Assembly (NCBI GenBank): GCA_024679065.1 | Contig: JAGIQG010000001.1 | Span: forward strand, 99,882,001-99,946,000 | Length of the DNA: 64,000 bases | Reading direction: 5' to 3' | From: Sphyrna mokarran | Taxonomy: Eukaryota | Shown here: piece after piece, positions 1,501-63,480 of the stretch | How the letters are laid out: each line of letters starts with the position of its first letter | How positions within the stretch are numbered: the first letter of the stretch is position 1 | Translations under genes and position numbers: made by a program | Notes under the pieces: generated by a model | Database searches by the model: none | Seen by the model: only the letters and a program-made list of their open reading frames with translations | Told to the model about the DNA's origin: nothing

Positions 1501-1877
1501 ACAACCAGAGAGACGTTCAGCATGTCATTGAGGGTAATTTTGGATTTGGGAGATAGTGTAAGTTGGGCAATACAGAGTTATATACCCACTAAACACCTCC
1601 ACCCAGAGACTCCACTACGAACAAAGAACAGGAAAGGTGTTTAACCAGCTGCTACGCTGATATTATCCATTTTACATCACCATCTGAAATTAAAACAAAC
1701 CACATTATGTACTCATGAAGTGTGGGCTGCAGCTCTTTTTAAAAACTTAAAACCCTGGATTAGAATCATTGCAAATTTGGTTTGGCTGAGTCAATGAATT
1801 TCAGCTAAAACTCCAGCAAATTCCAAATTAATTGTGAATTGGAATAGTTATTGAATATATGCAGTCTCTTTTCTTAG

Positions 1878-1935
1878 GAAGATTATAAGATTATGCAAAC
1901 AGACCTGAGACCTGCATACAAACATGAAAAGATGG
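1878..1935 (+). other. Candidate 58-nt exon
   Basis: Acceptor tctcttttcttag|G and donor TGG|gtaagt. Frame 0 is open (EDYKIMQTDLRPAYKHEKM); the peptide is not recognised. Confidence 0.25.
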
Positions 1936-3163
1936 GTAAGTACTTGTCAATGACTGTATTTCAAACTAACATTAAAATGAACTGAAGCCCGATAATATAG
2001 TGAGCATGTGTCTTGGTTACAAGATTTCATTATACATAGATCATCAATAATGGTTCATATAAGTAATATTTTCTCAGATGGTATTATTGGCTCTAGTATA
2101 TTACAGATACTTCATAAAAAATGCAAGAGAATAGCATCATTTTAGCAAGAAAGTGAAACCTTGTTTGTTAGGAAAATTCATTTATAAGAGAATAGGTGGG
2201 GCTGATTTTCCCGACAATCCTCAGCCCACATTCAGGTTAGCGTACCCATAGTGATAACATTCATTGGCCCTGATACATGGCATGTCTGCCTAGTCAGCTC
2301 TGATGTTGGGCATCAATTGCAGAAGTGAGAGCAAGTAAGGTCCTGGCTGCTATTGAAGCCCAAGGCTAAAGGAGTTTTTTAACCACAAATCATGGTTACT
2401 TGCTGAAGGAAGATGAACCACCAACCATCTGGCCTTGATATTGCATCAATTAAAGCTTTCAGAAAGTTTCACAGTAGATAATCATTTGTGTACGCACTGT
2501 AGATCTGAATGATGCAATGTCTATCTCAGTGCAAACAGACCAGCACAACACTCCTCCAAAAGTGCCTTTACAGCACATATTTTAGACAATAAATTGAAAC
2601 AATTGTGAATTGATAACATGCATTTGTTTCAAAGCAAATAGAAGGTTATGAGGTTAATGTAAGGCATAGTTCTCAGACAATAAGAATCCTGTTTTTGTGA
2701 GTACCTCTAATCTAATCAAGATTATTTCACATCCCCTAACCATATGTTAGTTTTATCAACTGTTTTCTCATCATTGTTTTAAAACTTTTGATTTTTAAAA
2801 ACCTACAGGGCAAATGTTTACCAACACATATGAAGCATTTTAAGTTTAAAAAAAAACTGCTTGAACCTTTTTGAGACTGACAAAAAGATTGTTGTTAAAT
2901 GCCTTGTGTTAAAATAATGCTGGATTGAAAGCAAGGTTGGAGAAAAAATTATAATAGAATTCCAAACTGAATTAATCATCTATTGCTGGGGTGAGGGTAA
3001 TGTTATATCTGCAAAAGACAGCAAATATTCTTAAGTTTTGCTTAGTTACTCTTCAAATTAGAAAACTTTTATGAAAAAGTTTTTGTTCTGAAGATTAAAT
3101 GGCAGTGTTACAATCATTGTCATTGGAAGGTATGAGCTTTTCAAAAGAATGTCTTTACTCAGT

Positions 3164-3380
3164 TTTGATGTGGAAATGCTGGCATTGGACAGGGATGGGC
3201 ACAGTAAGAAGTCTCATAACACCAGATTAAAGTCCAACAGGTTTATTTGGTAGCATGAGTTTCGGAGTGCTGCTCCTTTATCGACTGAGCCCATTCACCC
3301 AATGAGGGGGCGGTGCTCCAAAAACTCAGGATACCAAATAAACCTGTTGGATTTTAACTGGTGTTGTGAGATGTCTTACA
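3164..3380. mobile_element. Penelope-like inverted pLTR (hairpin) insertion, family A
   Basis: Inverted arms (gtaagaagtctcataacaccag...gtttatttggta / taccaaataaacctgttgg...gtcttac). TSD TTACTCAGT at 3155-3163 and 3381-3389. Confidence 0.85.
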
Positions 3381-3969
3381 TTACTCAGTAAATTTGTTAT
3401 GCCTCATCAAGGCAAGGATAGAAATATAACATTTGGCTTGTCATGTTTGGTCTGACTGTTTTCCAGGTTATTCATTTTTTGTTTAAACAATGCAATCCTG
3501 ATTGAAATGTATCAGTCTGGCTCCAGGTCGAAGCAGCAGTTAATGGCAGCATGCACACAGCACAGGATAAAAGCTTGGGGATAGATTGTGGCTTTCATTT
3601 TCCAGAACTTTTGCTGTAAGTTCAGCTCAGGGAACCACAAAAACCTCAGAGTAGAATAAGCTTTCATGGGTTTTCCCTGAAGCTCCGGTTATTGTTATTG
3701 CAGTAAAAGAACATGTGAGGAAATGATCATTTTAAAATCTATGTTCTGTTCACGATGGTGAAAAACATGGATTAAAATCATCTCCGAGACAGCCTAACTT
3801 TCTCACCATGGCAATTCCATTTTCATGATTGTGTCCAAGATTCAGATGTTCTGTACTGAAGAGATAACTTCTTTTCTCCCTATGCAAAAGCAATTAATCT
3901 TGTCGATTTTGTGCTTATTGAGGTGAAGGATGTTAACTAAAATATAACTATAAAAGAAAATAGTGGAAA

Positions 3970-31216: not shown

Positions 31217-32401
31217 ATGGGGACCAAATTCGCACCTCAGTATGCCAACATCTTCATGCACAGGTTCAAACAAGACTTCTTCACCACACGAGATCTTCAA
31301 CTAAGGTTATATACTAGATACATTGATGACATCTTTTTCCTTTGGACTCATGGTGAACAATCATTGAAACAACTGTATGATGATATCAACAAGTTCCATC
31401 TCACCATCAGACTCACCATGGACTATTCTCCAGAATAAGTTGCATTCTTGGACACACGCATCTCCATCAAAGACGGTCACCTCAGCACCTCACTGTACTG
31501 CAAACCGACAGACAACCTCACAATGCTCCACTTCTCCAGCTTCCACCCTAGACACGTTAAAGAAGCCATTCCCCATGGACAAGCCCTCCGTATACACAGA
31601 ATTTGCTCAGATGAGGAGGATCATGACAGACACCTCCAGACGCTGAAGGATGCCCTCGTGAGAACAGGATATGGCGCTCGACTCATCGATCGACAGTTCC
31701 GACGTGCCACAACGATAAACCGCACTGACCTCCTCAGAAGACGAACACGGGACACGGTGGACAGAGTACCCTTTGTTGTCCAGTACTTCCCCGGAGCGGA
31801 GAAGCTACGACATCTTCTCCGGAGTCTTCAACATATCATTGATGACGATGAACATCTCGCTAGGGCCATCCCCACCCCCCCACTTCTTGCTTTCAGACAA
31901 CTGCACAACCTCAAACAGATCATTGTTCGCAGCAAACTACCCAACCTTCAGGAGAACAGTGACCACAATACCACACAACCCTGCCACAGCAACCTCTGCA
32001 AGACATGCCGGATCATAGACATGGACGACATCATCAAACGTGAGGATACCATTCACCAGGTGCACGATACATACTCTTGCAACTCGGCCAACGTTGTCTA
32101 CCTAATACGTTGCAAGAAAGGATGTCCCGAAGCATGGTACATTGGGGAGACCATGCAGACACTACAACAGCGGATGAATGAGCATCGCTCAACAATCACC
32201 AGGCAAAACAGTTCCCTTCCTGTGGGTGAACACTTCAGCAGTCATGGGCATTCGGCCTCCGACCTGCGGGTAAATGTTCTTCAAGGGGGCCTTCGTGACA
32301 CACGACAGCACAGAGTCACTGAGCAGAGACTGATAGCCAAGTTCCGCACACATGAGGATGGTCTTAATAGGGATCTTGGCTTCATGACACACTATCTGTA
32401 A
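31217..32401 (+). pseudogene. Penelope reverse transcriptase C-terminal part plus GIY-YIG endonuclease
   Basis: ORFs 31217-31438 and 31448-32401 are in the same frame, separated by one TAA. Motifs MGTKFAPQYANIFM, RYIDD, CxxxxCxxC, VVYLIRC...WYIGET, RMNEH, VGEHF, GLNRD. Confidence 0.92.
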
Positions 32402-42042: not shown

Positions 42043-42530
42043 ATTTTTTTATTGATTTATACGATGAAGGCTTCATTGACTGGATCAAAATTCATTGCTC
42101 TCCCTAACTGACCTTAGAAAAATGGTGGTGAGCTGCCTTCTTGAACTGCTGCAGTCTCTGAAGTGTAGGTACACTCATGGTGCTATTGAGGATGGAGAGC
42201 CAAGACTTTGACCAACCACAGTGAAAGAATGGTGATAACGTTCTAATTCAGATGGTAAGTGGCTTGGAGGGGAACTGTCAGATGGTGGTTTTTCCAGGCA
42301 TCTCCTGCCCTCGTCGTTCTGTATGTAAGTGGTTGTGGGTTTGGAAGGTGCTAAGGATCACAGGTGAGTTCCTACTATGCATCTTGTAGATTGTACACAC
42401 AGTTGCTACAGTGTGTTGGGAATGGAGGGAGTGAATGTTTGGGGAAGCGGTGCCAATCAAGCAGGCTGCTTTTCTGGGGGGATGTCAAGCTTCTTGAGTG
42501 TTGCCGGAGCTGCATTCATCAAGGTAAAGG
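42043..42530 (-). mobile_element. CR1-group LINE 3' end (tail shared with the bipartite SINE)
   Basis: ORF 42278-42460 NIHSLHSQHTVATVCTIYKMH; 3' end ctaaggtcagttagggagagcaatgaattttg...aataaaaaaa. Confidence 0.75.
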
Positions 42531-42559
42531 GACAATAATTATATGGCGAGTTCACAAAG

Positions 42560-42767
42560 CGGTATCTCGGCCTTTTGGCTAAGATGGAAATGAGATCAAG
42601 GCTTGGAGGAGGAAGCTATGCCTACTCCAATTAGCTTGGAACATGTAGATCAAGTGCAAGACAGGAAGTGAGAGTCCTGTGTTGTCAGCTTGGATCAGGA
42701 ACGTCTCAACTTGTTGAGACTCTGAATTGGACTTGATTTGATTAAATTGGAATAAAAACAGAAAAAA
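42560..42767 (+). mobile_element. U2 snRNA-headed retroposon-like insertion (SINEU-like candidate)
   Basis: TCTCGGCCTTTTGGCTAAGAT (42565-42585) equals U2 nt 7-27. Non-U2 multi-hairpin body, A-rich tail, degenerate TSD agttca(tt)caaa(a)g. Confidence 0.65.
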
Positions 42768-43148
42768 AGTTCATTCAAAAGTCTGACAGCAGCAGGGAAG
42801 AAGCTACTCTTGAGTCAGTTGTTAAGTGACGTCAGACTGTTGTATCTTTTTCCCGACAGAAGATAGAAGAGAGAATGTCCAGGATGCATGGGGTCCTTAA
42901 TTATGCTGGCTGCTTTGATGAGTCAGCAGGAAGTGTAGACAGAGTCAGTGGATGGGAGGCTGGTTTGTGTGACGAATTAGGCTATATTCACAACCTTTCA
43001 TAGTTTCTTGCAGTCTTGGGCAGAGTAGGAGCCATACCAAGCCGTGATATAACCAGAAAGAACGCTTTCTATGGTGCATCCATAAAAGTTGGTGAGATTC
43101 ATAGCTAACATGCCAAATTTCCTTAATCTTCTGAGAAAGTAGAGGTAA
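42768..43148 (-). mobile_element. Rex1/Babar LINE 3' region
   Basis: LYFLRRLRKFGM...FYGCTIESVLSGYITAWYG...IIKDPMHPGHSLF...SFFPAAVRLLN. Confidence 0.88.
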
Positions 43149-46419: not shown

Positions 46420-47378
46420 CCTACCATGACTAACCCTGAAGACAAGGATAAATTGGTAATAAATTGATAAATTGGGTTGATAAGTTTGCTGACGACACAA
46501 AGATTGGTGGTGTTGTGGATAGTTTGGAGGGATGTCTGAGGTTGCAGCATGACATAGATAGGATGCAAGGCTGGGTGGAGAAGTGGCAGATGGACTTCAA
46601 CCCAGATAAATGTGTAGTGGTCCATTTTGGCAGGTCAAATGGGATAAAGGAATATAATATCAAGGATAAGACTTTTAGCAGTGTAAAGGATCAGAAGGAC
46701 CTTGGGGTCTGGGACTCTTAAATCCGCTTTGCAGGTAGAGAACGTGGTTAAGAAGACGTATGATGCATTGGCCTTCATCAATCGAGCAATTGAGTTTTGG
46801 AGTCGGGAGATAATGCTGCAATTTTATAAGACCCTAGTCAGACCTCTCTTGGAATACTCAGTGCTCAGTTCTGGTTGCCTCATTATAGGAAGAATGTAGA
46901 AGCTATTGAAAGGGTGCAGAGCAGAATTACAAGGATGTTCCCTGCATTGGGTGGCATGTCTTATGAAGATAGGTGAAGGAGCTCAATCATTTCTCCTTAG
47001 AGAGACGAATGATAAGAGGTGACATGATAGGAGTGTATAAGATGTTGAGAGGTATAGATCAGGTGGATTCTCAGAAGCTTTTTCCAAGGGCTGGAATGGT
47101 TGCTACGAGAGGACACAGGTTTAGGGTGCTGGGGAGTAGGTACAGAGGAGATATCGGGGTAAGTTTTTCACTCAGAGGGTGGTGGGTGAGTGGAATCGGC
47201 TGCCATCAGTTGTGGTGAAGGCAAATTTAATAGGGTCTTTCAGGAGACTTCTGGATGAGTACATGGGATTTAATGGGATTGAAGGTTATAGATAGACCTG
47301 GTAGGTAGGGATATGATCGGCGCAATTTGTGGGCCAAAGGGCCTGTCTGCAGTGTAGTTTTTCTATGTTCTATGTTCT
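46420..47378 (+). mobile_element. CR1 3' ~0.95 kb
   Basis: KFADDTKIGG, WQMDFNPDKC, FYKTLVRPLLEY, TRGHRFRV; tail ttctatgttctatgttcta. Confidence 0.92.
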
Positions 47379-61961: not shown

Positions 61962-62325
61962 AGTCATGTGGCTCAGCCAACGTTGTCTACCTGATAGCTG
62001 TGGGAAAGGATGTCCCAAGGCATGATACATCAGTGAGGCCACGCAGGCACTACAACAACAAATGAATGGACACCGTGCAACAATCACCAGGCAGGAGTGT
62101 TCTTTTCCGGTCAGAAAACACTTCAGCAGTCAAGGGCATTCAGTCTCTGATTTTCAGTGTTCTTCAAGGCGGCCTTCAAGAACATGTCAATGCAGAATTG
62201 CCAAGAAGAAACTGATAGCCAGTTCCACATACATGAGGACGGCCTCAACCAGGATTCTGCATTCGTATCACACTACGTGTAGCCCCCACCATTTGGCCTG
62301 GGCTCACAAAATCTTATTAACTGTA
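61962..62325 (+). mobile_element. Decayed Penelope GIY-YIG fragment
   Basis: SCGSANVVYLI...MNGHRATITRQECSFPVRKHFSSQGH, homologous to 32075-32440. Confidence 0.85.
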
Positions 62326-63480
62326 AGCAGGTTTAAACAGAGTCAGCGTGGATTTATGAAAGGGAAGTTATGTTTGACAAATCGACTGGAATTCTTTGAG
62401 GATGTAATGAGTAAACCTGATGAGGGGCAGCAAGTGGATCTGGTTTATTTGGATTATCAGATGGCTTTCAACCACATAAGAGATTAATGGGTAAAATTAA
62501 AGCTCGTGGAATTGGAGGTAGTGTTCATTGAGATGGATAGAAAACTGGTTAACAGACAAGAAGCAAAGAGTAGCAATAAACTATCTTTTTCCAAATGGCA
62601 GGCAGTGATCAGTGAGGTACTGCAAGGTTTGATGATAGTAAGCAACAATTTATAATATACATTAATGATTTAGATGAGGGAACTAAATGGAAGATTTACA
62701 TATTTGCAGATGACTCAATGCTGAGTAGGACGATGAGCTATGAGGAGAATGCAGAGATGCTTCAGTATGATTTCCGCAGACTGAGTGAGCAGACAAATGC
62801 ATGGCAGATGCAGTTTAATGAGGATAAATGTAAGGTTATCCACTTTGGTAGCAAAAATAAAAAGACAGATTATTATCTGTCTTTTTGATTGTTATCTGGG
62901 ACACAGCTTCAAATTAAGGGGTGATAGTTATAGGACGGATGTCAGAGGTAGGTTCTTTACCCAAAGGGTGGTTTGGGAGTAGAATGCCCTGCCTGCAGCA
63001 GTTGTGGATGTGCCAAGTTTGGTGGCATTTAAGAGGTTAGTTGATAAGTATATGGAAGAGAAGGGAATGGTTTAGTTTGGAGGGGCATTGCTTTTTATTT
63101 GGTCGGCGCAACATCGAAGGCCGAAGGGCCTGTTCTGTGCTGTAATGTTCTATGTTCTATGTTCTATGTTCTATCTGAATGGCTATAAATTGAGACAGGG
63201 AAATATATAATGAGATCTGGATATCCTCTTACACTAATCATTCGAGGTAAGCATCCAGGTACAACCGGCAGTAAAGAAGACAACTAATATTGGTCCTCAT
63301 AGTGAGAGGATTCATGTATAGATTCAGGGATATCTTGTTGCAACTATACACGGCCTTGGTGAGACGACATCTGGAATATTGTGTGTAGTTTTGGTGTTCT
63401 TATCTGAAGAAGGATGTTCTTGCTATGGATGGAATGCACTGAAGGTTTACCAGACTGATTCCTGGCACTGATATAAGAGG
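62326..63480 (+). mobile_element. CR1 RT remnant with a nested young CR1
   Basis: SQRGFMKGKLCLTNRLEFFE, VYLDYQMAF, INDLDEG, FADDSML, WQMQFN. Confidence 0.88.
62880..63171 (+). mobile_element. Young CR1 3' end
   Basis: Near-identical to 6893-7158; (tgttcta)n tail; TATCTG duplicated at 62874-62879 and 63172-63177. Confidence 0.9.

Follow-up and report, generated by a model that had tools for sequence, protein, structure and literature searches.

A U2-headed retroposon family in Sphyrna mokarran with copies inside U2 genes and a probable Tx1-like LINE partner

A 64,000-nucleotide stretch of the Sphyrna mokarran genome (contig JAGIQG010000001.1, positions 99,882,001 to 99,946,000 of the forward strand; hereafter the window) contains a perfect piece of U2 snRNA followed by three hairpins and an A-rich tail, set into the end of a LINE. 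What kind of element is this, where does it begin, which enzyme copies it and from which promoter might it be transcribed? The feature proves genuine, yet it represents only the rear two-thirds of a retroposon copy and not a whole element. Our preferred reading, in which we have reasonable confidence, is a 5'-truncated, U2-headed poly(A) retroposon that probably owes its copying to a Keno-like Tx1 LINE and, in copies lying inside a U2 gene, its transcription to the U2 promoter.

The window copy and its insertion site

The window copy, its parts and its immediate neighbors are listed in order of position.

42103..42528, minus strand: a different, 5'-truncated LINE fragment adjoining on the left, presumably CR1/L2-like; 67–79% matches in 5 loci ending at 42523–42528
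42549..42554, plus strand: possible left target-site duplicate AGTTCA (6-nt exact match)
42556..42759, plus strand: 5'-truncated U2-headed retroposon copy of the young subfamily, corresponding to family consensus nt 103–305
42565..42585, plus strand: second (internal) U2 piece, U2 nt 7–27 (stem-loop I), 21/21 identical to U2 gene L031
42590..42645, plus strand: hairpin module A, with AGATCAAG (U2 nt 24–31) as outer arm, inner stem 42603–42630 and a complementary outer arm (from folds of the window copy and of the consensus)
42647..42698, plus strand: hairpin module B, outer scaffold as in module A, inner stem 42657–42684 (from 13-nt and 10-nt internal repeats in the consensus, plus folds)
42703..42720, plus strand: hairpin C (inverted repeat in the consensus, folds)
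42751..42768, plus strand: AATAAA and A-rich tail, the common 3' end of the family (A tail at 42760–42768)
42768..42773, plus strand: possible right target-site duplicate AGTTCA, at the start of the host LINE
42769..43140, minus strand: 3' region of the host LINE, which we take to be Rex/Babar; 10,499 first-look candidates, top matches 85–88% identical, Pfam PF09004 at E = 3e-5

The motifs reported by the first-pass annotation were all found in place, including the 21-nt U2 identity, which is perfect (21/21) against the U2 gene of S. mokarran itself. The same segment is matched by Rfam RF00004 (model positions 7–26); the Rfam U2 search alone gives only E = 0.48. All three hairpins described at first pass fold, and a 208-nt stretch of the window copy is more stable than expected (z = -3.6), with none of 200 shuffles equally stable. 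The copy is 93.6% identical to a consensus built from 30 copies and groups with young copies at diagnostic sites upon clustering.

Comparison with the family altered several points of the earlier description. A 10-nt U2 match, AGATCAAGTG, is present but is a private mutation of the window copy, the family having AGATCAAGCC. Likewise, GCTTGGA does occur three times, but the first occurrence is private and reads CCTTGGA in the family. Absence of GUAGUA holds for the truncated window copy only; the family carries GTAGTA at consensus nt 33–38. The view that U2 nt 7–27 forms the head and start of the unit had to be abandoned, as 24 of the 30 best-matching copies reach ~80–105 nt further 5'.

The proposed target-site duplication (TSD) of 11 and 14 nt contracted as well: AGTTCA is exact, but no exact match extends beyond those 6 nt, and 4.9% of mismatched flank pairs score as high. 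The 5' AAAG of the claimed duplicate is also the element's own sequence, and in most of 29 other host-LINE copies the 3' CATTCAAAAG belongs to the LINE itself. Approximately 20 nt left of the window copy weakly match the continuation of the host LINE (p = 0.03; 0.001 with the 6-mer). A search left of the window copy for the rest of that LINE found none (best E = 0.26), and the left LINE fragment has no match to host-LINE loci. Insertion into the end of the host LINE with a decayed 6–14-nt duplication is plausible, and AAAG common to target and element at the 5' junction is what would be expected of microhomology at truncation.

Elsewhere in the window, 46788–46811 is a 24-nt, 87.5% match to U2 nt 94–117 (E = 0.009 within the window) that may be due to chance. 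Positions 31439–32401 (plus strand) hold a 320-aa open frame of another retroelement-like repeat, presumably Penelope-like from its GIY-YIG look, with a decayed relative at 62026–62487.

Structure, subfamilies and spread of the family

Searches of the shark's own genome returned 2,847 first-look candidates with the window copy as query and 2,013 and 2,803 with other queries, numbers that are not copy numbers. All 40 scored genome matches were 89–100% identical. The sequence is thus not single-copy (2,000–2,800 first-look candidates), and the original suggestion of a multi-copy, independently mobilized, structured, U2-derived SINEU-type family in a shark is borne out by these dispersed copies. 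The 30 copies of the first set have a common 3' end, with flanks that diverge past the A tail, and the flanks of 89 copies are unrelated and diverse. That this is a multi-copy retroposon family spread by retroposition is virtually certain.

The consensus unit comprises ~305 nt plus an A tail (a ~315-nt family). It consists, in order, of U2 nt 1–40, a 68-nt spacer, U2 nt 7–27, two hairpin modules built on a common scaffold, a third hairpin, AATAAA and the A tail. It was built in-script from 30 copies except for nt 1–10, which were taken from U2 gene L031; in this form nt 1–40 equal that gene, and 16 of 29 copies picked by their head align from nt 1. Among 30 copies chosen on their 3' part, 24 start at U2 nt 1–24. 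Inspection of 89 copies revealed no common non-U2 5' extension.

Clustering employed 83 copies, namely the 89 fetched by element queries minus 6 with an incomplete 3' end or tail, and resolved two subfamilies separated by ~25 diagnostic sites. The older contains 28 copies with a median identity of 91.3% to their own consensus. The younger contains 48 full and 6 truncated copies that are 94–95% identical to consensus; one further copy is intermediate. Along with common ends, copy-specific TSDs were found: in a wide scan, 12 of 83 copies had a TSD score of at least 8, versus 0.3% of mismatched flank pairs. These TSDs of 10–13 nt mark a minority, 71 of the 83 copies being without a clear one, and a narrow-window scan of 30 copies detected a single clear TSD, no better than the null.

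The element was present in 14 DNA-type sequencing runs from at least six organisms; in four runs of other organisms, 1,842–3,793 contigs match the window copy. Element words were absent from three possible RNA runs, and six RNA runs with a share of 0.07 proved to be metagenomes of other hosts. Rfam has no family for the element body.

U2 genes and a Tx1-like LINE

Two associations escaped the first-pass annotation: a Keno-like Tx1 LINE is linked to the element, and U2 genes serve as targets. The LINE in question is ~5.2 kb long and encodes an ORF1 (PF23057/PF23058) and an ORF2 (RVT_1, zf-RVT). We take it to be Tx1-like from this domain layout, and presume its endonuclease motifs from inspection by eye. 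The endonuclease piece had no match in Pfam or PDB, and a piece of ORF2 had only three matches, all shark proteins at 57–68%.

The genome has a U2 cluster on contig C949 and 48 Rfam U2 matches. At three loci (L051, L116 and C949:17389778-17390226) the element is followed directly by U2 from nt 39–40, and at four others (L052, L056, L219 and L228) the 3' end of the Tx1-like LINE is followed by U2 from the same position. These junctions fall at the published Keno/Utopia site: the 3' junction of Utopia is reported at U2 nt 39, with an identical 3' flank for Keno (PMC4640811). Most insertions of element and LINE lie outside U2, with U2 following 1 of 89 element copies chosen by element sequence and 2 of 58 non-query LINE 3' ends, and the 3' flanks of element copies yield no consensus. 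Specificity is therefore relaxed.

Searches with the U2 5' flank returned eight loci, six of which are U2 genes and two of which hold the element. At C949:17389778 a complete older element resides inside U2, and the U2 5' flank is split by another repeat. At L198, U2 nt 1–39 and the initial 14 nt of the young spacer are present before a LINE fragment interrupts the copy. The U2 5' flanks of these loci score 106 and 91 against shuffle null maxima of 54 and 48, and the best of 89 dispersed-copy flanks scores 49. Because both copies are decayed or interrupted, they show a route rather than an active master. C949:17313671 was considered as a third promoter-bearing copy and rejected, its flank not being significant.

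Element and LINE are also joined outside U2. With the query copies set aside, an element begins no more than ~35 nt from the 3' end of the LINE in 5 of 29 older LINE copies and in 3 of 29 younger ones, compared with ~0.001 cases expected by chance in 58 at one element per Mb (hand estimate). These pairs are matched in age, old with old and young with young; median identities to consensus of old and young copies are 87.6% and 93% for the LINE and 91% and 94% for the element. In L136 and L146 the element behind the LINE has its own TSD and was thus inserted separately at the same spot. At L273 the order is LINE, element, full LINE and then two elements. Same-orientation tandem arrays of the two, with up to five units, were seen at L273, L145, L269, L026 and L107.

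U2 pieces occur at the LINE's own 5' end, at 20 of 29 loci versus 1 of 29 control windows. The heads vary, comprising U2 nt 1–35, 1–58 or 32–52, U1 and U3; Rfam detects the U3 piece in L164 (E = 0.008) and the U1 piece in L181 (E = 0.023), both below gathering score. A head of U2 nt 1–58 is what the 5' half would give if 20 nt were duplicated at the nt 39 site. The LINE 5' ends at L164, L167, L176, L165, L175, L178, L179 and L181 appear as subfamilies with nested heads, the U3 snoRNA piece (L164) and the U1 piece (L181) standing in front of U2 nt 32–52. Alignment of the young LINE 3' UTR (L146, L200–L228) suggests a tandem duplication with a remnant resembling U2 nt 38–48 between the halves (L228), which looks like a relic of an earlier insertion into U2. 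From the junctions, the adjacency and the U2 pieces at LINE 5' ends, the Tx1 LINE is very probably the partner of the element.

We propose the following route. The LINE endonuclease would nick U2 at nt 38/39, a strongly preferred but not exclusive site, and the element would land in a U2 gene. The upstream snRNA promoter would then drive an RNA from U2 nt 1 through the element; as this RNA would start at U2 nt 1, dispersed copies would begin there and lack the promoter. LINE ORF2 would reverse-transcribe the RNA from its A tail, with no common tail sequence needed. The antisense arm described below may fold back over U2 nt 11–39 and hide the branch-point- and U6-pairing sequence, and a head masked in this way would keep element RNA out of the spliceosome. 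On sequence grounds, we consider transcription of the element from the U2 promoter fairly probable.

An alternative, which we hold to be unlikely, retains the same family and Tx1 partner but derives the U2 head from template switching, with masters that use unrelated upstream promoters and U2-gene copies that are dead ends. Kojima 2015 favors template switching for head addition (PMC4494074). Consistent with such a mechanism, an additional U2 piece lies between TSD and element in L004, the LINE heads are nested U1, U3 and U2 pieces, and the promoter-bearing copies are decayed. Against it, the head ends (nt 37–40) coincide with the insertion site at nt 39 and do not vary inside a subfamily, the 89 copies have no non-U2 5' extension in common, and the element occupies two of eight loci with a U2 5' flank. 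Template switching does also occur, as the extra piece of L004 and the mixed LINE heads show. The U2 promoter remains our preferred origin of the element RNA.

Quite improbable is a derivation of the element from Tx1 by internal deletion, with 5' UTR joined to 3' UTR, instead of a SINE-like composite. Element and LINE both start with U2 pieces, and the last 42 nt of the element resemble part of the young LINE 3' UTR (p = 0.07). The body, however, has no significant match to the LINE 5' UTR (p = 0.37–0.56, sampled subfamily), so that its candidacy as a Tx1 5' UTR was rejected, or to the 3' UTR (p = 0.07–0.19, one LINE lineage sampled). Against a whole LINE copy the longest match is 11 nt exact, and the terminal 3' sequence of the LINE differs from that of the element. 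Given these UTR results, the element is not the 3' end of the sampled LINE, an outcome that speaks against the possibility, raised at first pass, that the body is the 3' end of a U2-targeting LINE.

It is very improbable that the shorter unit first described, which begins with the second U2 piece, forms a separate family. Starts at consensus nt 96–110 were found in 4 of 30 copies, and L019 starts with U2 nt 4. Yet the starts are ragged, that of the window copy lies on A-rich microhomology with its target, and the short copies have every scored diagnostic state of full-length young copies. Because they carry these young states, we regard them as truncations of the composite element.

Other arrangements of U2 were noted. 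Many dispersed U2 copies have ~40 nt of gene 3' flank and no 5' flank (L036–L047, L051, L053, L056, L059, L060), and several of them start near nt 34–46; they may be retrocopies of U2 RNA extended at its 3' end, or may stem from read-through out of elements lodged in U2 genes. At L052/L071 (C1548) and L219/L277 (C113) a divergent U2, 80–82% identical to the main gene, comes after the LINE 3' end, and another U2 5' piece lies ~200–230 nt past it, which may point to a second type of U2 gene or to a unit that was transduced. Four near-identical U2 genes lie in ~8-kb tandem units at C949:17.326-17.351 Mb (L062–L065), and truncated and disrupted U2 copies occur at the edge of the C949 cluster. At L218 the LINE 3' end runs into an inverted U2 1–40 head, and an element body lies on the other strand at a distance of ~590 nt, possibly by inversion or opposite-strand insertion.

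Folding of the U2 head and relation to known elements

Consensuses of the two subfamilies fold with z = -4.2 and -6.3. The reverse strand of the young consensus gives z = -4.1, and z alone therefore does not orient function. More specific is the start of the spacer, an imperfect antisense copy of U2 nt 13–39 whose match to antisense U2 is significant in the old (p < 0.001) and young (p = 0.037) subfamilies. Predicted pairing of this arm with the head covers nt 33–38 in the young subfamily and nt 33–36 in the old, in which nt 37–38 are unpaired. When the first 75 nt of U2 are folded by themselves, nt 33–38 stay largely unpaired, and pairing probabilities for nt 34–38 are at least 0.94 in the young head versus at most 0.24 in U2 itself.

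Transitions within the arm preserve pairing as G-U in 7 of 7 young (p = 0.013) and 5 of 5 old cases (p = 0.054), counts that are not independent since four transitions are common to both subfamilies; selection for pairing or RNA editing could each give this pattern. In body stems, fixed differences between subfamilies are not significantly rarer at paired (4/88) than unpaired positions (5/43; p = 0.15), mismatch at the copy level is 5.1% paired versus 6.7% unpaired, and the three body hairpins lack two-sided compensatory changes between subfamilies. Masking of the head as a selected function is conceivable on these predictions, although we lean slightly against it.

At consensus nt 95–102, roughly where U2 has its Sm site, the hairpins are separated by a single-stranded U-run that is not a canonical Sm sequence.

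The idea, also offered at first pass, that a functional, unannotated U2-variant RNA gene gave rise to the copies as its retropseudogenes can draw on the strong folding, the branch-point- and U6-pairing sequence of the head and the two copies with U2 5' flank, but is practically discounted by the lack of an intact, conserved, promoter-bearing gene among the eight loci with that flank, by successive subfamilies as in transposons, by the non-canonical U-run in place of an Sm site and by the predicted masking of the working sequence. The element has neither the Sm site nor the intact promoter-bearing gene of a functional U2 variant, and the composite retroposon stands as our reading.

Among known systems, the SINEU elements of crocodilians are closest. 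Kojima 2015 (PMC4494074) describes SINEU-1, -2 and -3 together with Tx1-Mar, finds none outside crocodilians and leaves SINEU transcription as an open question, the snRNA promoters lying upstream of the transcribed part. The shark element resembles SINEU in its U2-derived head, repeated addition of snRNA pieces, length below 500 nt, poly(A), oligo-T runs, occasional ~10-nt TSDs, tandem insertions and a Tx1 partner with U1/U2 pieces at its 5' ends. SINEU has no LINE with the same 3' end, and the shark element gave no significant match to the 3' UTR of the one LINE lineage compared (p = 0.07–0.19).

Four class features of SINEU are present: a U1/U2-derived head, fewer than 500 nt with a 3' poly(A), amplification as a unit with subfamilies and a Tx1 LINE with the same targets (U2 nt 39 junctions, tandem stacking), by which we infer mobilization. 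Differences from the described SINEUs are the shark host, a preferred target that is the U2 gene itself instead of Mariner-N4 (Mariner-N4_AMi), copies behind a U2 5' flank, the antisense arm over the head and a partner LINE that also carries U3 pieces; the layouts described for SINEU-2 and SINEU-3, with U1+U2 or an internally deleted U2, differ as well. We do not file the element under SINEU-1, -2 or -3 because the host differs, a separation made on host and not on body sequence. The literature searched, which did not extend to Repbase, Dfam or most subscription journals, held no snRNA-headed SINE from cartilaginous fish and no SINEU outside crocodilians.

The published Keno and Utopia LINEs have the same 3' junction at U2 nt 39 as the element and partner LINE, but the element is 0.3 kb long and non-coding. 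The partner LINE departs from the strict U2 specificity of Keno, with U2 after only 2 of 58 non-query 3' ends, and has ORF1 plus an ORF2 with RT and zf-RVT, as opposed to the C-terminal restriction-like endonuclease ascribed to Utopia. Ordinary U2 retropseudogenes and snRNA-LINE chimeras, as treated in the Discussion of PMC4494074, likewise have a 5' U2 fragment fronting a retrocopy. In contrast to independent chimeras of that sort, the element has thousands of candidate copies, one fixed composite structure and subfamilies. These sequences are best read as a SINEU-like element outside crocodilians that depends on a Keno-like Tx1 for its mobilization and probably on U2 promoters for its transcription.

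The full scenario, that of a shark SINE that homes into U2 genes, employs an snRNA Pol II promoter, obtains its head from the 5' half of its target and bears a masking arm, alongside a Tx1 that stacks U1, U2 and U3 pieces, is tentative. If true, it would represent a second, independent origin of SINEU, and homing into U2 genes would answer how promoter-less SINEU elements are transcribed. Copies inside U2 genes at the Keno site, two of them behind a U2 5' flank, provide a concrete and testable route, namely transcription together with the target gene, the way R2 is transcribed in rDNA, but here for a non-autonomous element. The family constitutes a gap in repeat libraries if uncatalogued, and its abundance and presence in several organisms make it a source of markers for shark phylogeny.
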